A DNA stretch of 63,410 bases, filler included, from Collodictyon triciliatum (Eukaryota): assembly GCA_043381765.1 (NCBI GenBank). It is 23 parts of 23 records of this genome, joined end to end, with 100 filler letters (N's around TTAATTAATTAA, not from the genome) between each part and the next. Parts side by side here need not be neighbours in the genome. Positions count along the whole stretch, not along the records: positions 45,100 to 47,810 come from JBHJMP010008410.1; 22 more parts are not named here. One strand, written 5' to 3'. The first letter of the stretch is position 1. The number at the start of each line of letters is the position of its first letter. Below are positions 29,343-53,043 of this stretch, one piece after another. Below the pieces are notes generated by a model. It saw only the letters and a program-made list of their open reading frames with translations, did not search any database and had not been told where the DNA came from. A program made the position numbers and the translations under genes.

Positions 29343-29860
29343 TTTTTTTCTTCCATTCAACTTTTGTGCAGGACCGAGGGGGGGGTGTTGGCTTTGGTTC
29401 GCTAGCCATCGGTTGTATGGACGCTACTTGTCGGCGGAGGAGCAGTCGGTGCTCAGGATTGCATCCTGCGGTTTGGCCTGTGGCCTGGGTGTTACAAAGG
29501 GGTGTCTGGGGGCACGGGGGTTTTCCAAGAAGGGCAGACGTGGAATAGAGCGGGGACAATTCTGTGGGGTGTGTTTTTGTGGGGTCGAAGCTCGGCGTAG
29601 ATATGGCATCTCATTCCTCCCTCAAGGAAGCACTCTTCTGGTGACGTCATTTTCTTCGAAAGTTGTGGGGTGTGCTCCGTTGTCCGGCGAAGCACACCCC
29701 GTCTGCCCTGGATTGGGTATAACTGAGGGCACAGGAGGAGGGCTCAGGGAATGCGTGATACAGGGCCGGAATCACACACACCGCGCACCCTGTGGGGTTC
29801 GAACCACGTTCGCGCACGTCAGACGCTGTCCCATGCCAGCTGGACTACAACGTCTGCCCC
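29343..29860 (-). mobile_element. Full-length 518-bp non-autonomous retroelement (SINE-like): tRNA-like head, structured body, LINE-A tail, A-rich end
   Basis: Flanked by an exact 18-bp direct repeat TCCGAAAAGGAAGAACAT (29325-29342 and 29861-29878). Pol III A and B boxes sit at the 5' end, the body is shared with 41931-42187, and the tail is shared with 91-232. Confidence 0.92.
29785..29854 (-). promoter_or_regulatory. tRNA-derived head with internal Pol III promoter
   Basis: A box TAGTCCAGCTGG (29836-29847), D-stem GTCC/GGAC, B box GGTTCGAACCC (29795-29805), T-stem GTGG/CCAC. Acceptor and anticodon arms are degenerate, so this is not a functional tRNA. Confidence 0.8.
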
Positions 29861-30305
29861 TCCGAAAAGGAAGAACATAGACAGGCGCTGTTGGGAAGCA
29901 AAAGCAGCACCCGCAACTTCACCCGCCTCGGCCGAATTCCAAGCCCAACCAAACCCTGTGCTTTTGCTTCGATTCGAACCCGCCTCAAACGCTGGCAAAA
30001 TTGGCCGAGGCAGTCACAACCCACACGCTTCACCTGTCACGCTGCTTTCACTGAATGAATATCATGTCTTGTTCTTGTTCTTGTTCTTGTTCTTCCGCTT
30101 CACCGTCAAGGTCGATCAGCACTGTTTGTCCGATTTGTCATGTGCACGGCACCGTATCTTCTTCCTCGCCCACGACTCTCGCCTCTTCTGGTTTCCACCG
30201 ATCACCACCTTCTCCGCACTCTGTCTCTTTTTGCAAACCTGAAGAATACGAGGGAAACGCGTCCATCCTTGCAGTTTCCTCACTCTCTTTGCGATTCCCC
30301 TTCTT

Positions 30306-31138: not shown

Positions 31139-31161
31139 GTTGATTAAAAACTGGAAAACAT

Positions 31162-32805
31162 TTGATACTTGAGAAAAATTACTCAAGGGACTTAAATCAC
31201 GAAGATTGCGTGAAAATACTACGAAAGTATTATAATTCCAAAAAAAATTACCACAGTCACAATATTCTTCGCATGGTCTCCACTTTGCCCACCGATGAGA
31301 TGATTTCGTGGTATGAGAGACACGCTCACAGTGTGATTGATTTGTGGTTGAGATGGAGATATGTGAATCTTGGACGTGCCATCATGGACCATATGACCCG
31401 TAAGAACCTGGCAGTCAAAGCCACCAAACAGATCACTAATCCAGTCTCTCGACTGATCCGATGTCTTAAAATCCTCGAAAAAGTCCTGAAAAGTCGGCGC
31501 TACGTGTGCTCTCAGAACTACCCCACTATTGCTGATATATCTATCGCAGCTGCATTGGTTGACTTAGAACTAGTGGACTTGGACTGGGAGCGATATCCCT
31601 CCTTACGCAACTGGTACTTTGACATTGTCAGCAGAGACCCGAACTGGGGCCGTGTTTTCGATCCAGTCTACTTCAAGGTGGCCCAAAAACGCGGATTTTC
31701 CTCTCCAAAACAAACACACTTATTATCAGCCTCTTTGCAACCCTATTCTGCTCATCTTAGTGCTCTGGTGAAGACCCAGAGTGTCCCAGTTTCCTTCGAC
31801 TTCTTCGACCCTGAATGGAAATTCCTGGAATACCTTCCGGAGCAGAACTACGCCCTCCCTTTGACAAGGACGGAGGAAAAAATGCTCATCGACTCCAACA
31901 TCCACAAAGCTCCGTCCAGGCAGAAAGAAAGCAAACGACTGTCCCCTCGGGTGAGATACAACTTCGATTCCTCAGGTGGTCTTGGTTGCATCCGCATAGT
32001 TGTCAACTCCAAGGTTTCGTCTATCCTTCCCATTCCAAAAAGGGTGGAGGACTTACAAAGCCTGTGTCTTTACCTACAGTCCTTCTATCCCCATTCCAGG
32101 TTGGTCTTGTGTGATGAGAATGGGGCGGGTCTTTACGTCCCAAAGTCTCCAAAGCCGGAAGCATGGGAGGCCCTTCTCCCAGTCATATATGCCATCCACG
32201 TTGTCCCGCCAACAGAGCATCGCAACTTCAACAAGACCCCACAATTCAATTACCGCCCTGTTCTCATCTCATCTCTGGTTTCTGGGACAAACACTTGTCT
32301 GTCAGCAGCAACTGGTACATGGACAGGAATCGCCGGTGGTCTGGGCCCCGAGCTGATTCCAGGACTGTACCCTGGTCATAATTCGGCAACAAGTTCATCT
32401 GCAAACCTGCAGAACGTCCACCCGCCCAACAGCGCACCATTCACGCAAAACCCAACTTCGTCCAATCAAAAAAGACAACTGTTTCCACATCCTCGTTCTC
32501 CGGCCAACAGCGTCCCTCACTCGCCGCTCCGCCATCCCCCGCACCCTTCGCCACAATCCCCGCCCCAGCCTTCCAACACAACTCCGGTCAAAGGCAAGCG
32601 AAAGGATAACAGGACCCAGACGCAAGAGTCCTTGCCAGCCATCCAGCAACCCCACTCAGCCCGCTCATCATCACAAACCCCGAGGAAAGAGCCCCGCACC
32701 CAGCCTGCTCCTCTTCCTCCGCCCCACCCCTCCATCCCCACGAACGACTTTCCAGTCAGCTTGCCCAACATCGGGATTCGGGGCCTTGTCCCTGCGAGAA
32801 AATGA
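31162..32805 (+). CDS. Protein with a theta-like GST C-terminal domain and a long Pro-rich extension (5' part probably missing)
   Basis: IDLWLRW...LKILEKVLKSRRYVCSQNYPTIADISIAAALVDLELVDLDWERYPSLRNW matches GST_C (N-cap TIAD, YP.L..W). Uninterrupted 547 codons. Confidence 0.75.
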   Translation: MILEKNYSRDLNHEDCVKILRKYYNSKKNYHSHNILRMVSTLPTDEMISWYERHAHSVIDLWLRWRYVNLGRAIMDHMTRKNLAVKATKQITNPVSRLIRCLKILEKVLKSRRYVCSQNYPTIADISIAAALVDLELVDLDWERYPSLRNWYFDIVSRDPNWGRVFDPVYFKVAQKRGFSSPKQTHLLSASLQPYSAHLSALVKTQSVPVSFDFFDPEWKFLEYLPEQNYALPLTRTEEKMLIDSNIHKAPSRQKESKRLSPRVRYNFDSSGGLGCIRIVVNSKVSSILPIPKRVEDLQSLCLYLQSFYPHSRLVLCDENGAGLYVPKSPKPEAWEALLPVIYAIHVVPPTEHRNFNKTPQFNYRPVLISSLVSGTNTCLSAATGTWTGIAGGLGPELIPGLYPGHNSATSSSANLQNVHPPNSAPFTQNPTSSNQKRQLFPHPRSPANSVPHSPLRHPPHPSPQSPPQPSNTTPVKGKRKDNRTQTQESLPAIQQPHSARSSSQTPRKEPRTQPAPLPPPHPSIPTNDFPVSLPNIGIRGLVPARK

Positions 32806-39944: not shown

Positions 39945-41158
39945 TCAAAAAGTGCAGAATTCTTCAATGTTCCTAGGTTCGTCATTGACCCAAAACATTG
40001 ATGTGTCGTACGCTCGTTTAGGTTTTTTCATGATGATGCTGTTATCGATATATTTATCATATATCTTATATTTCGAATTACCATTGAAATGTATAAAAGA
40101 TGGTCTTGCATTGGTCGGAATATGCTCTAAATGATCGGCAGTTTTTTGAACCCATGGACATGTGGGCTGACATGCTTTTTCTATGTCAAACATTGTCATA
40201 GCAAACTCTACACAATAATCCAAATGAATTTCGGTTATTTTAAGTAAATATGCCTCATGAAAGAATTTCTGATCGTCGTGCCAACTGGATTTCGATGATA
40301 CTATCTCATCCCTTATCATTCCTAGCAAATCCTTTAGTGCCCCAGCGTAGGCTATGTATGTACCAGAATTGATGAACCTAGGCCTTGATTGATAGTACAT
40401 ACGTCAGAAATCCTTAAGCCAGTAATAGATTTAGTATGATATGGAAATCAATAGTTTAGCAAAGGCATTACATAGGGAGCTATCAGTTCAGATTATTATA
40501 GTTATTCATGTCACACTAACCCTCCTTTTAGACAAGTGTTATATGAGCTATTCATGTCATAAACGTGCTCACAGGCTCCTTTTTTTACCGCAGAATTCGG
40601 ATAAAATCTTCGTGCAACTTCGTCCGGGTAACAGTTATGCTCGACAGACATAATAATTGGTACGTTTTTTTTTATAAATTTTTCAACAATATTGTCCATG
40701 TAGTCGTTAAAGACAATATCCAAGCAATCAACAAGTATAATGATAGTGTCATTGGTGTACTTTTGGACGACATTGTTCATAATAAAAATTTTCTCTCGGA
40801 CATTCTTCCAAGGGAGGCCGAAATTGATGAGATGAAGAAACGCCCCATAGGAGTGTGCAGAACGTAAAAAATTACAAGTTTTCTGTTTTATCTCACTGCA
40901 AGTAGACATAACAACTGCGTTATGAATCTGTAAACCCTGATTATATAGCATTAGGTTTTGGCCGAGGCTGTCGCCAAGGTATGCGATAAGTCTCTTACTA
41001 GACTGGGTATTAAAATTTGTGTTACGTAATGATCCGGACATCGAGCCAGGTTCTATGTGTTTCCTTTCCAAGTCATCTCTTTCAGATGAGGAATGTGTGA
41101 TGAACACGAGCAGGATTATGTAAATCAAGAGCAACCTATTTGCAGCAGACGAAGACAT
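39945..41158 (-). CDS. PLOD/LH3-type glycosyltransferase-domain protein (2 exons; intron 40384-40520)
   Basis: N-terminal hydrophobic anchor, IILVDCLDIVF (DxxD), IIMSVEHNCYPD, GPRFINSGTYIAY, DDQKFF, IHLD and FIHFNGNSK. The GTTAG...AAG intron joins the two ORFs in frame. Confidence 0.88.
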
Positions 41159-41699
41159 TCTAAGAAATAAAGTTATCTTTTTTAGTGTGTGCGCTGAAGG
41201 CTTTCGTTGATTTCGATCTCGTGAGACACCATGACACGAATCCAAAAATTTTGTTTCAGAAGCCTATTGTGATTAATAATAAAAATTTATCGTGACATTG
41301 AAGAACTTGCCTCGCCTTTTGAGGTATTGTTTTTAATATTTATCTTGAATTATTCGACTTGCCCCGAAGGTGCAACTCCAATTGATTATTATTGTAAAAT
41401 TTGATCGCTTGTACGCTAAATAGGTGAGAGAATTTCTTAAATTATACTTTTTTTTACAATAATTGACTTATCGCCCAGAATTTCTGTTTTTAAGTGTTTC
41501 AATACTATTTTGATACGAAGAAAGTAAATAAGCCTTACTGTTTCAGTCATTGCTGCATGAGGGAGCTTACAGTCGGTAGATTTTATATTCATTAACATGC
41601 GATAGATCACAATATACAATTATGGACAAATGTTTACAAACTAAAATGGTTATCTACGTCTGGTAATATCACTCCATTCATCATTCACGACGCAAAAGG

Positions 41700-42187
41700 T
41701 AATGCGATAGATGGGTAAGTACAGCTGCGCATAGTATAGAGTAAAAGCGATTAGAAGATACTTCCATGGAGAGGCTAGCACTGGAAAGAAATCAGTGATA
41801 GATTTGGTCAGGCGGCCGTCTCGACTGGTTGATCGGTTTTTTTCTGATTCTTATAAGTTTATTTGGAATGGTCGAGAAGAGCTTGATGGGGAATGGCTTG
41901 GTAGGACGCGTGCCGGGGAAGCTTTTGCGAAGGGGTGTGTGGGTGGCATGGGGGATTTTCCATGAAGGGAAGGCATGGAATAGAGGGGGGACAATCCTCT
42001 GGGGTGACTTTTTTTGGGGTCGAAGCTCGGCGTAGATATGGTATCTCATTCCTCTCTCACGGAAGTACTCTTCTGGTGACGTCATTTTCTTCGAAAGTTG
42101 TGGGGTGTGCTCCGTTGTCCGGCGAAGCACACCCCGGCTGCCCTGGATTGGGTATAACTGAGGGCACAGGAGGAGGGCTCAGGGAAT
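41700..42187 (-). mobile_element. Second copy of the SINE-like element (head cut off by contig end) carrying a LINE-B tail
   Basis: 41931-42187 aligns with 29498-29752. 41712-41835 aligns with 46880-47010 (PINQSRRPPDQ/ITDFFPVLASP plus 3' UTR). Confidence 0.88.
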
Positions 42188-44999: not shown

Positions 45000-45102
45000 N
45001 NNNNNNNNNNNNNNNNNNNNNNNNNNNNNNNNNNNNNNNNNNNTTAATTAATTAANNNNNNNNNNNNNNNNNNNNNNNNNNNNNNNNNNNNNNNNNNNNA
45101 GC

Positions 45103-46746
45103 GTGTCAACCAACTGTGCAGGAAAAATAACTTCAGAGGAGGAATCCATAATGACAGGTAAAGTACCACCCAGCCCAGCCCAAGCATCGGATGAAAATGC
45201 ACTCGTCGTACCCACACCCAATTCCACAATAATGCAATGCAAGGAAAATGACCCACAAACTATATTAAAAACTACTGGCAATATACAAGACATCATCGAA
45301 ACACAAATACCTATTGACAGCTGTGATAATCAATTCGATGGCAATCCTCAAATTGACAGACAATCGTCGTTTGATTATCCAAGCGGTCTTAGTGTCAAAG
45401 ATATTGATGAAGACGAAAGTATTTTGTGGTTCCTATTTAACATTTGGAGGCTCATCATCAAACGCTCCCTCCTTGCTGCCACTACAGCTACGATGATCAT
45501 GTGTATATTTTATCTCCCGGCTATTGCCTTTCCAAAGGAGATACTTGAGAACCATCTTGAGCCGATTCTCTATGTACATGTCCGTGAAGTAGTTGCCCGT
45601 TCTATTAACATGATTACATACCTACTGGTCCTCATTTCCGTATTCGGATATGAGAAAACAAAGTCAACGGCATATTTCTATTGGCCAGTTTTATTTGTGT
45701 TTTACCTACTTCAATACTTTGTTGAAGTTTTTATGCGGTACACTATTCCATTCCTAGGGACTTTGCTCATCCCTTTAATGATTTACTGTATGATTATTAG
45801 AATACATTTGGACAACAAAAAAATCATTCCAATCGACGAGTCGGTTTTGGTCAAGCAAGATTGTATCAAATTGGCTAAACTAATACTCGCGGGGATGATG
45901 GTCTTGATTTTTTTCCAGGCGGTTGTTCAATACTTTGCAAAATCTAGCTTCGCAAAAAAAATGTTTATTCGGTTTATCATTTTCCCAGTCGTCAGTATTG
46001 GGGTGAGTAACTACCAATTCCTGATTATAGGGAATCACTTGGCCTCTTATACCCAATTCATCAATATAATTGCCTTCTCGCGCTATCATTTGCAATACAC
46101 AAGTCGTTCAATGATTACAAGCATCAGTAATGACCCATTCTCTTACGAATTTTTGCTTTTTTGTGTTGTGGCTTCTTGTGCAAAGTGTGTAAATCGGATC
46201 ACTATTAAACAACAAAATTACATCTCAATTATGGCGACTAGTTGGATGAAAAGGAGTGTCCGGATGGTACAGTTAGCGTCTATCTACATGGCAGAATCTA
46301 CCACACCAAACGAATTGGAACCAGACTCACTTGATGACCAGTTCATTTCAAATATTTCAAATCACAAAAAATCTGATGCAGAGAGGAGGCAGCATTTTGA
46401 TGAAGTGTTCCGTCAAATTCGTGCCGTTCATATTGTCGAGGGGGTCAGCGTCAGCATACAGACAATCATCACCACTCCTTTGCTATTTTATCTCTTAAAT
46501 AGGCTCTTTGTAGACAAAGGCCTGAATCTGATTACTTCTTTCACAGATTGTGCCGTCCAAGTAAGCGCCCAGCTCTTTTTGGAGTTTGTAACCAACACCT
46601 TTTTGTTTATATTTGAGAGTCGCTGTCTTTGCATCCCAATCAAAAGTGTTTTAGAAATAGAGAGTAGAACTTCATTCTATCTCCAGTTTCTTTTCATCAT
46701 GGGCCCGATACTTTATATCCATTTCATACTCCTCACATATTATTAA
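45103..46746 (+). CDS. Intronless multi-pass membrane protein (about 11 predicted TM helices), function unknown
   Basis: 547-codon ORF with a hydrophilic N-terminus followed by repeated ~20-aa hydrophobic segments. Confidence 0.8.
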   Translation: MSTNCAGKITSEEESIMTGKVPPSPAQASDENALVVPTPNSTIMQCKENDPQTILKTTGNIQDIIETQIPIDSCDNQFDGNPQIDRQSSFDYPSGLSVKDIDEDESILWFLFNIWRLIIKRSLLAATTATMIMCIFYLPAIAFPKEILENHLEPILYVHVREVVARSINMITYLLVLISVFGYEKTKSTAYFYWPVLFVFYLLQYFVEVFMRYTIPFLGTLLIPLMIYCMIIRIHLDNKKIIPIDESVLVKQDCIKLAKLILAGMMVLIFFQAVVQYFAKSSFAKKMFIRFIIFPVVSIGVSNYQFLIIGNHLASYTQFINIIAFSRYHLQYTSRSMITSISNDPFSYEFLLFCVVASCAKCVNRITIKQQNYISIMATSWMKRSVRMVQLASIYMAESTTPNELEPDSLDDQFISNISNHKKSDAERRQHFDEVFRQIRAVHIVEGVSVSIQTIITTPLLFYLLNRLFVDKGLNLITSFTDCAVQVSAQLFLEFVTNTFLFIFESRCLCIPIKSVLEIESRTSFYLQFLFIMGPILYIHFILLTYY

Positions 46747-46835
46747 AGAAAAAGTCAAGGGAACGAAACTAAGCTAATCAAGTAATCGTTTTATTTAAAA
46801 TGGGGTTATCTTAAAAGAAAATAATTAATTACATG

Positions 46836-47810
46836 TTTTTTCTTTTTATTCAATTATAAGTGTAGCGAGGTTATGCCAAAGGGGCAAGATAGGTGCGCAT
46901 GGTAGAGAGCAAACGCGAGTAGGAGAAGACACTACCGTGGAGAGGGTAGAACTGGAAAGAAATCAGTGATAGCGAGTTGGTCAGGTGGACGTCCCAACTG
47001 GTTGATTGGCTGCGTGGGTAGCATGGGTTGGATATGTTGTGGGAGATATCGCACGGCACATTCCCACATCTCTCTTCGCTTGCGGTCAGAGCAGCGAAGA
47101 ATGCGAGCGTGTTTCAGCAGACTGTTCAGGAAGCTGTATTGCACGAGGCTTTCCAGCCTGGATGCATTGATTTTTCGTTCGGATGACTCATTGGAGCGAG
47201 AGAATGCACGCACACTCCATAAGGAAAACAGCATATGTCCCCTTGTGACTGTCCAGAGTATTCTAGAGTCGTGGGTCATTTTGTGTTGTAGGCCAAACAG
47301 TATGTCAGAGGTGCTGAGTTGGTTGGGAGCATAATCAAGCTCAGATAGCATCTTGTGGGTAGATTCTGTGACTTTTTGAGAAAGGGAGCACTTCACAAAT
47401 GTGTGTTCGATAGAGTCATCTCCACTATGGCACATGGTGCGTTCTGGAGAGTTCGTTGCTGCATGGACTGCACGCGCACCTATCCAAAGCTCTCTGTTGG
47501 AGATATTGAGAAGTAGGGCGCGGTGTTTCGGGAGTAGCTGAGGTATACGGGCTTGCTTCCAGCTTTTGACTATTAGCGGGTCTATAATGCCTATAGTTTC
47601 GGCCCAACGACTCATTTTCTCCGGTTTCTAGGGATTCGGGCTGATGATTTTATATCGAAACAGCTTGGAGTACGCCATGGCCATCGAGAATTGCGGAGGG
47701 TCAGGTGTAATGGACCGCCTTTGGTTCTTCAGGCGAAAGAAAAATGGCGACGGTGCTCCGTATGAGATGGGACGTCGTGAGCGCCATTCTCCTTTGTTGT
47801 TCAGGACGGC
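46836..47810 (-). mobile_element. L1/Tx1-like LINE (family B), 3' part of ORF2 with zf-RVT region, 3' UTR and A-rich end; defective copy
   Basis: W..ARIPQLLPKHRALLLNISNREL...RTMCHSGDDSIEHTFVKC (CCHC finger with the first Cys lost) and LFSLWSVR. One in-frame TAG at 47628-47630; the frame is otherwise open to the contig end. Confidence 0.88.
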
Positions 47811-47910: not shown

Positions 47911-48005
47911 TTTTTTGCTTAATTCAATTCAAAGTGCAGCGAGGATGTGCCATACAAAGGGGCAAGATAGGTGCGCATGGTAGAGAGCAGACGCGAGTAG
48001 GAGAG
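47911..48005 (-). mobile_element. 5'-truncated family-B LINE 3' UTR copy
   Basis: aaaggggcaagataggtgcgcatggtagagagca..cgcgagtaggaga is nearly identical to 46878-46926 and is followed by an A tail. Confidence 0.85.
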
Positions 48006-52039: not shown

Positions 52040-53043
52040 ACCGCAAAGGATCTGCACTATGCAGAACGTCGACGAAGTCTGCTTCACACAAGACCCACAG
52101 AGGCTGTGCGTTATGCCGGACTGCGAAGAAGTCTGCTTCACACAAGACCCGCAAAGGCTCTCCACTATGCCGGACTGCGACGGAGTCTGCTCCACACACA
52201 ACCCGCAAAGGCTCTCCACTATGCCGAACGTCGACGAAGTCTGCTTCGCACAAGACCCGCAAAGGCTCTCCACTACGCCGAACGTCGACGCATTCTGCTT
52301 CACACAAGACCCGCAAAGGCTCTCCACTATGCCGAACGTCGACGAAGTCTGCTTCACACAAGACCCACAAAGGCTGTGCGTTATGCCGGGATACGACGCA
52401 GTCTGCTTCACACAAGACCCGCAAAGGCTCTCCACTATGCCGGAATACGACGCAGTCTGCCCCACACACGCAAGACCCACGAAGGCCCTCCACTATGCCG
52501 GACTGCAACGCAGTCTGTTTCACACAAGACCCGCAAAGGCTCTCCACTATGCCGAACGTCGACGAAATCTGCTTCACACAAGACCCGCAAAGGATCTCCG
52601 CTATGCCGAACGTCGACGCAGTCTGCTCCACACAAGACCCGCAAAGGATCTCCGCTATGCTGAACGTCGACGAAGTCTGCTCCACACAAGACCCGCAAAG
52701 GCTGCACTATGCCGAACGTCGACACAGTCTGCTTCACACACAACCCTCGAAGGCTCTGCACTATGCCGGAATACGACGCAGTCTGCTTCACACAAGACCC
52801 GCAAAGGCTCTCCACTATGCCGGAATACGACGCAGTCTGCTTCATACAAGACCCACAAAGGCTCTCCACTATGCCGGTATATGACGACGAAGTCTGCTTC
52901 ACACAAGACCCGCAAAAGCTCTCCACTATGCCGGAATACGACGCAGTCTGCTTCACACAAGACCCGCAAAGGCTCTCCACTATGCCGAACGCCGATAAGT
53001 CTGCTTCACACACATGCAAGATTCTGTACTATGCCGGAATACC
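52040..53043. repeat. CpG-rich 54-bp minisatellite, about 18 units, with degenerate units at 53255-53433
   Basis: Unit CCGCAAAGGCTCTCCACTATGCCGAACGTCGACGAAGTCTGCTTCACACAAGAC. Indels of +4 and -2 break the reading frame. Confidence 0.95.

Follow-up and report, generated by a model that had tools for sequence, protein, structure and literature searches.

We propose that a clade of LINE retrotransposons represented in the genome of Collodictyon triciliatum ends its pol (ORF2-like) protein in a short tail bearing a PCNA-interacting (PIP) box, that this tail is under selection, and that it most likely docks onto host PCNA, a reading which we hold to be probable. PCNA is named as the partner because of the motif alone. 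The stretch of DNA that was analysed, hereafter the window, is 63,410 nt long and consists of 23 short contigs (about 2.7 kb each) of assembly GCA_043381765.1, separated by spacers of the form N44-TTAATTAATTAA-N44; the finding sits in the piece at 45100-47810, in an element that we call family B. A preliminary description of this DNA had taken the frame for the C-terminus of a LINE ORF2 with a canonical TD-type PIP box at its extreme end, and our analysis supports that view. It had also put QLAITDFF six residues before the stop; the motif is indeed there, on the minus strand, but the frame reads ...PPDQLAITDFF and then runs on for seven residues, not six. A six-frame scan of the whole window for x-x-[ILMV]-T-D-[FY]-[FY] returned three matches, all of them LINE tails of families A or B, the third being a degenerate family-B tail at 41785-41805 on the minus strand. 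Family A, represented by a shorter fragment, carries PLLITDYF on the plus strand where the preliminary description had placed it. The features are collected in Table 1.

Table 1. Features of the LINE and SINE-like elements, in window positions.
Feature	Position	Strand	Basis or remark
Family-B LINE pol (ORF2-like) C-terminus, 292 codons, cut by contig end	46932-47810	minus	
231-codon open frame ending in the QLAITDFF tail	46935-47627	minus	translation
Variable Pro/Gln-rich linker, from last conserved Trp of the C-terminal domain to the motif	46980-47063	minus	alignment
PIP-box codons QLAITDFF, family B	46956-46979	minus	residues 217-224 of the 231-residue frame
Post-motif residues PVLPSPR (seven), family B; +4 is Pro	46935-46955	minus	frame translation
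Family-B frame stop codon	46932-46934	minus	frame translation
Family-B 3' UTR, about 86 nt, then A-rich tail	46846-46931	minus	T-run loose ends at 46845 (run X1)
Family-B 3' UTR fragment, start of next contig	47911-48004	minus	85% identity
Family-A LINE pol, last 61 codons and stop, cut by contig start	3-188	plus	
Family-A motif PLLITDYF, then SATR (Arg at +4)	120-143	plus	14 residues before stop at 186-188
SINE-like non-autonomous element: body and family-A LINE tail (29386-29493)	29386-29900	minus	
Second SINE-like copy: body 41930-42187 (cut by contig end) and family-B LINE tail 41697-41836	41697-42187	minus	

The sequence QLAITDFF has glutamine at position 1, an aliphatic residue (I/L/M/V) at position 4 and an aromatic pair at positions 7 and 8, which are the defining positions of a PIP box, and across relatives these positions are kept while the flanks and the x positions vary. 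Among 18 protein sequences that reach the tail, drawn from six diverged families, the strict pattern Q-x-x-[ILMV]-x-x-[FY]-[FY] is present in 12; three more have a single defect (P0019, which reads DLF; the family-A sequence of the window, with Pro for Gln; and P0012, which is missing one aromatic), and in the remaining three the motif is lost (P0006, P0021 and P0004, the last constituting family E). The motif is aligned in five of the six families, which share 35-52% identity, with QTVITDFF, QTAITDFF or QTAITDYF, QSVITNFF and QFLITNYF standing against QLAITDFF of family B. Over six representatives the pairwise identity at motif positions 1 to 8 is 1.00, 0.07, 0.13, 0.67, 1.00, 0.27, 0.67 and 1.00, so that positions 1, 5 and 8 are invariant and 4 and 7 nearly so. 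The 28 scored linker columns upstream have a mean pairwise identity of 0.15, with none above 0.40, and the columns after the motif range from 0.07 to 0.20, save for one Pro column at 0.67. The earlier claim that the motif is kept while the linker diverges, made for two families, thus extends to six. As for the Pro that opens the motif in family A, the suggestion that the ancestral residue was Gln is borne out by close relatives: the window copy is 92-93% identical to P0012 (QFLITD-F) and P0024 (QFLITNYF), both of which read Q, and the short tail copy at 29386-29493 on the minus strand, joined to a SINE-like body, does retain CAA at position 1 among otherwise degenerate motif codons, as first noted.

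Several copies with single motif defects, and a window copy of family B that is itself dead, might suggest a chance resemblance in a decaying repeat. Chance would yield the strict pattern in 6.9e-4 of random 30-residue tails of matched composition, and the pattern with T-[DN] at positions 5 and 6 in 6e-6 of them, yet five of the six families have it at the aligned position; this cross-family alignment refutes chance resemblance for practical purposes, and we regard it as extremely improbable. The strict pattern is also absent from every other part of the 25 proteins searched, which include 3,744 residues of full-length relatives.

Conservation of this kind could also reside in the nucleotide sequence, and here the SINE-like elements of the window are relevant. 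Their two bodies (29497-29752 and 41930-42187) are 92.6% identical over 258 nt, and this one body is joined to a family-A tail in the first copy and to a family-B tail in the second, the sharing of a LINE 3' tail that is expected where a SINE is mobilised by a LINE. The family-B tail retains the ITDFF codons, with a 2-nt deletion just upstream. Since the motif codons fall within the 3' tail of roughly 110-140 nt that SINE-like elements and LINEs have in common, constraint at the RNA level acts there as well. A Pol III-type head (tRNA, 5S or 7SL) was not found on the SINE-like element: ARAGORN reported no tRNA genes, and Rfam returned no matches at gathering scores in the whole window and none at E<=1 over 29350-30100. 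By eye, there is an impression of a box-B-like string upstream of the SINE-like body.

One could therefore hold that what is conserved is a signal in the RNA of the LINE 3' end, recognised by the reverse transcriptase and borrowed by the SINEs, the peptide motif being incidental. Both tails carried by the SINE-like copies do include the motif codons, and of 200 shuffled versions of the family-A tail, 197 fold less well than the tail itself (z = -2.2), in which the D-Y-F codons lie in a predicted stem. The family-B tail, however, has an unremarkable fold (z = -1.0), blastn detects no nucleotide similarity between the A and B tails, and variation falls precisely on the x positions of the peptide. 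Of the five codons for I-T-D-F/Y-F, four differ between A and B at a synonymous third base only and the fifth is the F/Y exchange (hypergeometric 0.017); in L001, a family-B DNA copy from a metagenome, the Gln codon of the motif likewise differs by a synonymous change. We consider the RNA signal very unlikely as the main explanation. The preliminary description had named nucleotide-only conservation as a result that would count against it, and the conservation found is instead at the level of amino acids. Because the defining positions are conserved across families through synonymous codon change, the evidence points to selection at the protein level, with the PIP tail as a short linear motif maintained by that selection.

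The protein to which the tail belongs is supported as the C-terminus of an APE-type LINE pol (ORF2-like) protein. It has the C-terminal Cys-His knuckle (zf-RVT) typical of such proteins, at 47388-47441, with a C-x2-C-x8-H-x4-C spacing that agrees with the consensus given for non-mammalian L1 in PMC5381506. On the window copy Pfam zf-RVT scores 22.9 bits, under the cut-off of 27.5, because Arg replaces the first Cys of the knuckle; in the relatives P0025, P0021, P0014 and P0024 it scores 31.2-34.1 bits, above that cut-off. An ESM Atlas search with P0014 returned zf-RVT clusters only, from various eukaryote phyla. At E<=1e-3 there were 13 relatives, of which three (P0009, P0010 and P0013) are full-length and have Exo_endo_phos (48-53 bits) and RVT_1 (115-126 bits) domains; these three are distant and were matched through the C-terminal domain. 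The window contig itself ends short of the reverse transcriptase and AP-endonuclease domains, which are present only in those distant full-length relatives. The neighbouring 548-residue ORF at 45100-46746 matched no Pfam family, and elsewhere in the window a host ORF at 31144-32802 gave weak GST-like rows in ESM Atlas, which are uninformative as to taxon.

The family-B copy in the window is dead and cut at its 5' end. Upstream of the open stretch the reading continues in phase as far as the contig end at 47810, interrupted by one in-frame stop at 47628-47630. That stop and the Cys-to-Arg change are private to this copy, since nearly all the depth of contigs in run X1 shows another letter at 47628 and at 47441. 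The 212 contigs of that run that could be placed reach a depth of about 2,900-3,500 at 46902-47003 against 120-360 over 47582-47810, and L001 has an A run at the place matching the loose T-run ends (plus strand) of the X1 contigs at 46845; the element thus has many genomic copies, with poly(A) at the 3' end and truncation at the 5' end, as expected of a LINE. The family-B ORF evolves under constraint, with third codon positions taking 23 of the 39 listed in-ORF differences (p = 9e-4), and none of the best-supported X1 differences listed falls within 46887-47009, an interval that spans the motif.

In a tree built without the tail columns, the 15 tail-family sequences lie on one side of a branch and four tail-less relatives on the other (SH-aLRT 98), and on these sequences the tail families form a single clade. 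None of the four relatives that lie closest outside that clade has the tail, and three of these four are the full-length APE-RT proteins. The tail would accordingly have been gained once, on the branch that splits the tail families from their nearest tail-less relatives. We note that the tail-bearing sequences are all fragments on contigs of less than 2 kb; the sequences were drawn from a small number of environmental assemblies, and a single host species may account for them. Metagenome runs X4 and X8, labelled freshwater or lake, contain the LINE family in seven and five contigs, respectively, at identities of at least 99%. A search for longer relatives found none among 801 candidates scored, and no full-length intact element bearing the tail was found. 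A search for relatives of near length gave six matches with the family-B query and three with the family-A query, of which two new ones, P0026 and P0027, stop short of the tail. Among metagenome loci (alignment A6), one of 163 pattern matches was a relative, namely L001, a family-B copy broken upstream.

A PIP box is expected in an exposed, disordered segment, and AlphaFold2 (alignment A4) assigns residues 205-231 of the family-B frame a pLDDT below 50, compared with means of 52-88 over 10-residue blocks for residues 81-200; as the model taken as a whole is poor (mean pLDDT 56), this prediction of disorder is supportive only. The tail peptide had no match among PDB sequences at E<=10, the A4 profile had one chance-level match in the PDB (a CBS domain, E = 0.82), and Foldseek of the AlphaFold2 model, whose quality is too low for interpretation, found nothing in the PDB at E<=1e-3, only generic helical bundles. 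On our reading, the knuckle and the helical C-terminal domain of the protein are followed by a flexible Pro/Gln-rich linker, which closes with a PIP box of the TD type (Q-x-x-I-T-D/N-F/Y-F) that stands 7 to 14 residues ahead of the stop. This box would most likely insert into the hydrophobic pocket and the Q-pocket of host PCNA, and the bound tail might then tether the reverse transcriptase to clamp-loaded DNA at replication forks, gaps or repair patches. Alternatively, the tail may deliver PCNA, together with clients such as RNase H2, ligase and polymerases, to the intermediate of target-primed reverse transcription. Each of the two roles has been proposed for human L1, and here each is an inference.

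The threonine and the acidic residue within the motif bear on which partner, and which outcome, is to be expected. TD stands at positions 5 and 6 in families A, B, C and C2, and TN in family D and in P0024 of family A. The tail could be a PIP-like diaromatic motif for another hub, for example the C-terminal domain of Rev1 (as an RIR), Mlh1 (as a MIP box) or an unknown partner encoded by the host or the element; we judge this quite unlikely. The RIR centres only on its FF pair, whereas the Q-x-x-I-T-D-F-F string fits the high-affinity PCNA class, and the invariant Gln at 1, the aliphatic residue at 4 and Thr at 5 are features suited to the pockets of PCNA. It is true that PIP-like motifs share a hydrophobic helix and a double aromatic, and that many bind two or more hubs, as ELM curators state (PMC7145657). 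For PCNA itself, a TD pair makes for high affinity, and few PIP boxes have one (PMC3973308).

The same pair is typical of substrates of the ubiquitin ligase CRL4-Cdt2, whose signature is given as Q/N-x-x-psi-T-D-theta-theta-x-x-x-R/K (PMC3973308). The tail could then be chiefly a PIP degron, such that PCNA-bound ORF2p is ubiquitylated by CRL4-Cdt2 and destroyed; the activity of ORF2p would be limited to a short S-phase or post-damage period, whether as self-restraint or as host defence. This would be compatible with PCNA docking and concerns the purpose of the docking. The preliminary description had held that no basic residue stands at +4. This is correct for families B and D, which have Pro there, the window copy of B included, and fails for two others: Arg occupies +4 in all three family-A sequences (the window copy reads ...ITDYFSATR) and in all five of family C2, which read ...ITD(F/L)FAV(P/S)R, so that A and C2 present the full PIP-degron signature. 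Family C has His. Since the basic +4 is missing from B, C and D, the clade as a whole conserves the PIP core and not the degron part; TN also takes the place of TD in family D and in one copy of family A. As the principal function of the tail, the degron seems to us unlikely. A variant, to our minds unlikely, is that the tail is put to dual use in a conflict with the host, families A and C2 carrying a complete degron and B, C and D keeping the TD core with the basic +4 dropped, which would allow docking without destruction. If this were true, the clade would be a natural allelic series separating the need for PCNA in integration from PCNA-coupled restriction, and it would offer an independent parallel, of canonical type, to the contested PCNA site of human ORF2p.

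A putative PCNA-docking tail on a LINE may be compared first with human LINE-1, in which the arrangement differs. Human ORF2p is likewise the pol protein of an APE-type LINE with a knuckle of the form C-x2/3-C-x7/8-H-x4-C; human L1 needs PCNA (PMC10830420; PMC7617806), and the proposals are that PCNA recruits RNase H2 or directs the RNP towards target DNA that suits it (PMC10830420; PMC7617806; PMC4889948). The preliminary description took an internal PIP box between EN and RT as established for ORF2p. Such a site has been proposed, in an internal helix (404-419) that packs on the palm and fingers (PMC10830420), and for vertebrate L1s PMC5381506 reports that every species has the box between EN and RT; the human site is now contested, a 2025 proposal placing PCNA on a non-canonical 'PUB' surface of the wrist domain (W1011, I1014 and N968; PMC7617806). 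The human site is internal in either case, whereas the tail described here is a canonical TD-type PIP box on a C-terminal segment predicted to be disordered. The C-terminal domain here also differs in having no PDB sequence match, and no part of the three full-length relatives matches the strict PIP pattern.

Other systems offer partial parallels. The pogo, Tigger and Lemi1 transposases are also mobile-element enzymes described as carrying a canonical PIP box, and pogo transposase was a PCNA interactor in a two-hybrid screen; these are, in contrast, DDE cut-and-paste transposases and not retrotransposon reverse transcriptases, and the functional relevance of their motifs remains unclear according to the same review (PMC5371812). 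The degrons of p21, Cdt1 and Set8 have the same Q-x-x-psi-T-D-theta-theta core on a disordered terminus, and families A and C2 share their Arg at +4; these are host cell-cycle regulators, however, and LINE families B, C and D lack the basic residue. Bacterial beta-clamp binders, among them Tn7 TnsE and many IS transposases, use a short clamp motif to couple transposition to replication (PMC5371812 and PMC4549789), but with another clamp, a QL[SD]LF-type motif and DNA transposition, in prokaryotes. A link between mobile elements and PCNA is thus already known from human L1 ORF2p and pogo, and what appears to be new is a canonical C-terminal PIP tail on a LINE clade; in the titles, abstracts and passages of the open literature that were searched, no LINE pol protein was described as having a PIP box at its C-terminus.

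Where and why human ORF2p binds PCNA is disputed, and the tail clade bears on that question. A LINE clade that independently gained and kept a textbook PIP box of the high-affinity type on a flexible C-terminal tail would be evolutionary evidence that APE-type LINEs repeatedly need to engage the clamp. The tail would also provide a clean handle for asking whether PCNA serves in targeting, processivity, recruitment of RNase H2 or turnover, and sister families that differ in having or lacking the degron residue make the link to CRL4-Cdt2 a testable one. A conserved tag of the PCNA-binding type suggests that these elements hook onto the replication or repair machinery of the cell.

The frame that carries the motif is best read as what is left of an APE-type LINE (family B), namely the 3' end of a copy that is 5'-cut and dead. 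The Pfam zf-RVT profile scores 22.9 bits on it, below the cut-off of 27.5, owing to Arg in place of the first Cys in the C-x2-C-x8-H-x4-C knuckle, whose spacing is the one reported for non-mammalian L1 elements (PMC5381506); the cut-off is passed by four relatives (P0025, P0021, P0014 and P0024; 31.2-34.1 bits). Phmmer, run exhaustively over 1.84 billion representative proteins, yielded 13 relatives at E<=1e-3, and 14 further proteins were added through cluster look-ups and two word-index searches. P0009, P0010 and P0013 are distant full-length relatives (1,226-1,275 aa, 26-31% identity) in which the homologous C-terminal domain is preceded by Exo_endo_phos and RVT_1; among 801 candidates no longer relative scored, and no RT or EN domain of the tail-bearing clade itself was seen. 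The sequences that bear the tail are without exception fragments; their contigs are all shorter than 2 kb, belong to environmental or low-coverage assemblies and may come from a single host species.

Contigs of four public sequencing runs were placed on 46800-47810, which behaves as a high-copy repeat. Run X1 contributed 212 contigs, with a depth of ~2,900-3,500 at 46902-47003 versus 120-360 over 47582-47810, and loose ends made of T runs at 46845 mark the poly(A) junction. Nearly all of the depth at 47628 and 47441 carries a different letter, and hence both the in-frame stop and the Cys-to-Arg change are private to the window copy. Parts of 46959-47810 are covered by RNA-library contigs of run X15, in which DNA carry-over is possible.

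We note that the window's 63,410 bases comprise 23 contigs of ~2.7 kb, ordered by falling length and representing more than one locus, joined by 22 identical linkers N44-TTAATTAATTAA-N44 (spacers at 2726-2825, 5550-5649 and onward). Features on different pieces are not genomic neighbours; the LINE motif is located in the piece at 45100-47810. The open frames look eukaryotic in character, on the basis of a RING and B-box-like ORF, a PLOD-type glycosyltransferase in two parts, an O-fucosyltransferase and a GST-like ORF. The split of the PLOD-type domain is consistent with one intron. On either strand of the minisatellite several frames stay open, and long spurious ORFs result.

Features of the window and their positions
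Feature	Position	Strand	Remarks
Family-B LINE copy	46932-47810	-	stop at 46932-46934
231-codon family-B frame	46935-47627	-	upstream, in-phase reading to the contig end with one in-frame stop (47628-47630)
Family-B motif	46956-46979	-	QLAITDFF
Family-A motif	120-143	+	PLLITDYF, then 14 residues and a stop
Degenerate family-B tail	41785-41805	-	2-nt deletion immediately upstream
Family-B-like segment	39762-39797	+	36 nt, 89% identical to the segment that immediately precedes the motif and reaches into it (PPDQLA codons); divergent beyond
SINE-like copy	29386-29900	-	family-A LINE tail at 29386-29493
SINE-like copy	41697-42187	-	family-B LINE tail at 41697-41836
Two adjoining ORFs	59355-60378	-	C3HC4 RING finger in one (37 bits), then a Cys/His-rich, B-box-looking stretch; arrangement resembles TRIM, a possible hint of an animal host
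PLOD-type glycosyltransferase domain	39948-41263	-	over two ORFs (profile positions 6-125 and 126-239)
548-residue open frame	45100-46746	+	adjoins LINE fragment; hydrophobic, membrane-protein-like composition; no Pfam family at E<=0.1
Minisatellite	52041-53012		54-nt unit, 17.9 copies, 85% matches
Gln/His-rich repetitive ORFs	9425-10945		HPHQQLQQ... units; GC-richer piece, both strands open

The preliminary description had reported a PIP box at the end of this LINE frame and conserved in two families, and this observation as a whole is confirmed and extended here. The motif does lie near the end of the frame, seven residues before the stop rather than the six first counted, and the family-A counterpart is coded as described. 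A six-frame scan of the window for x-x-[ILMV]-T-D-[FY]-[FY] returned three matches, all of them LINE tails.

The claim that the motif is conserved while the linker diverges holds across further families. Eighteen protein sequences reach the tail in the alignment (A4): family A (window copy, P0012, P0024), family B (window copy, P0007, P0022, P0023), family C (P0002, P0016, P0006), family C2 (P0014, P0017, P0018, P0019, P0020), family D (P0005, P0021) and family E (P0004). The strict pattern Q..[ILMV]..[FY][FY] occurs in 12 of them, as QLAITDFF and QTVITDFF (four each) and QTAITDFF, QTAITDYF, QSVITNFF and QFLITNYF (one each). Three have a single defect (DLF in P0019, Pro for Gln in the window's family A, one aromatic missing in P0012) and in the last three the motif is lost: P0004 reads QYFNTPFF in its place, and the sequences of P0006 and P0021 part from the others immediately before it, in a frameshift-like manner. 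When one representative per family was compared (35-52% identical to B), pairwise identity at motif positions 1-8 was 1.00, 0.07, 0.13, 0.67, 1.00, 0.27, 0.67 and 1.00, so that what is conserved is the defining PIP positions plus Thr5, while the 'x' positions vary. The linker, from the last conserved Trp to the motif, has a mean identity of 0.15 over 28 scored columns (maximum <=0.40), and the seven columns after the motif comprise six at 0.07-0.20 and one Pro column at 0.67. The motif ranks 29th among 187 eight-column windows by identity, other parts of the protein being more conserved; it stands as an island within a tail that otherwise cannot be aligned. Elsewhere in the 25 proteins searched for it, among them the three full-length relatives with together 3,744 residues, the strict pattern is absent. 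Random tails of 30 residues and equal composition show it at a frequency of 6.9e-4 (6e-6 with T-[DN]).

It could be argued that the codons are conserved by an RNA constraint in the LINE 3' tail, and this alternative is not empty. The two SINE-like copies share a 258-nt body (92.6% identity) that bears an A tail in one and a B tail in the other, which identifies the borrowed module as the final 110-140 nt of the LINE RNA, a stretch that takes in the motif codons, and suggests that two partner LINE families have exchanged tails on this element. Searches of the element for a tRNA or Rfam head found none; a box-B-like string upstream of its body was seen by eye only. Of 200 shuffles of the family-A tail RNA (88-235(+)), 197 fold less well than the tail itself (z = -2.2), whose D-Y-F codons lie in a stem; the family-B tail has no notable fold (z = -1.0). 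In that stem the Asp-Tyr-Phe codons pair with a downstream AAGUAG, and an A-to-G change on the 5' arm in the SINE-like copy would keep the pair as G-U. Across families, however, conservation is limited to first and second codon positions, which is beyond the reach of an RNA constraint. The window's two families encode I-T-D-F/Y-F as ATC ACT GAT TTC TTT and ATT ACC GAC TAC TTC; four of the five codons differ at the synonymous third base only and the fifth is the Phe/Tyr exchange (chance of at least four of five changes in 15 nt on third positions, 0.017), and conservation at the nucleotide level only is not what is seen. By blastn, the A tail and the B tail show no similarity to each other. A family-B DNA copy from a metagenome (L001) retains intact motif codons, the one for Gln being changed synonymously, in an ORF broken upstream. 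Among the best-supported differences listed between the window copy and the placed contigs, 39 fall in the ORF, 23 of them at third positions (p = 9e-4), and none of those listed lies within 46887-47009.

Maximum likelihood applied to the C-terminal domain without the tail columns gives a tree in which a branch (SH-aLRT 98) separates all 15 tail-family sequences from four tail-less relatives (P0008, P0009, P0010 and P0013), which end ~20-25 residues earlier in the alignment; a fuller tree with the tail columns gives the identical split at 98/99. A single gain of the tail would be the simplest reading, one short of proof given an unrooted tree with long outgroup branches. AlphaFold2 on A4 gave a poor model (mean pLDDT 56), in which the C-terminal domain is helical (10-residue block means of 52-88 for residues 81-200) and the whole tail from residue 205 onward scores below 50, a prediction in keeping with a flexibly tethered short linear motif. 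PDB searches by sequence and by fold returned nothing usable.

The LINE pol thus carries, on a C-terminal tail predicted to be disordered, a selected, canonical TD-type PIP box that has been kept through deep divergence. The earlier interpretation is supported in part, as to the conservation of the motif, and PCNA binding is a proposal that derives from what is known of PIP boxes; we consider it fairly probable that this is a functional PCNA-docking tail. Given the PIP-box signature and the role of the TD pair (PMC3973308), the tail would bind the PCNA pocket with high affinity. By analogy with the PCNA roles proposed for human L1 (PMC10830420, PMC7617806), docking would either direct the RNP to clamp-loaded DNA or draw clients of PCNA, RNase H2 for example, to the integration intermediate. 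The chief rival to this reading, which might equally complement it, is the less probable one that the tails of families A and C2 reflect CRL4-Cdt2-coupled turnover, perhaps lost in the sister families. The preliminary description had the box lacking the +4 basic residue of a degron, which is true of families B and D (Pro) and C (His), but not of A and C2, both of which fit the full degron signature given in PMC3973308: Arg stands at +4 in all five C2 sequences, and A reads ...ITDYFSATR in all three, each with a different single core defect.

Clamp-binding motifs are reported for pogo/Tigger/Lemi1 transposases, bacterial TnsE, IS transposases and human L1 ORF2p (PMC5371812). The internal PIP box of human ORF2p, taken earlier as established, has been proposed, as a helix at residues 404-419 packed on palm and fingers (PMC10830420), but is contested, since a 2025 study places PCNA instead on a non-canonical wrist-domain 'PUB' surface, with W1011A and I1014A pull-downs (PMC7617806). 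For vertebrate L1, PMC5381506 reports the box in every species at a site between EN and RT, whereas here a canonical PIP box sits on the C-terminal tail, an arrangement for which a search of titles, abstracts and passages of openly available papers gave no report on a LINE pol. Clamp motifs in mobile elements were already known, and to these the present tail would add a variant that is canonical, C-terminal and carried by a different LINE clade.
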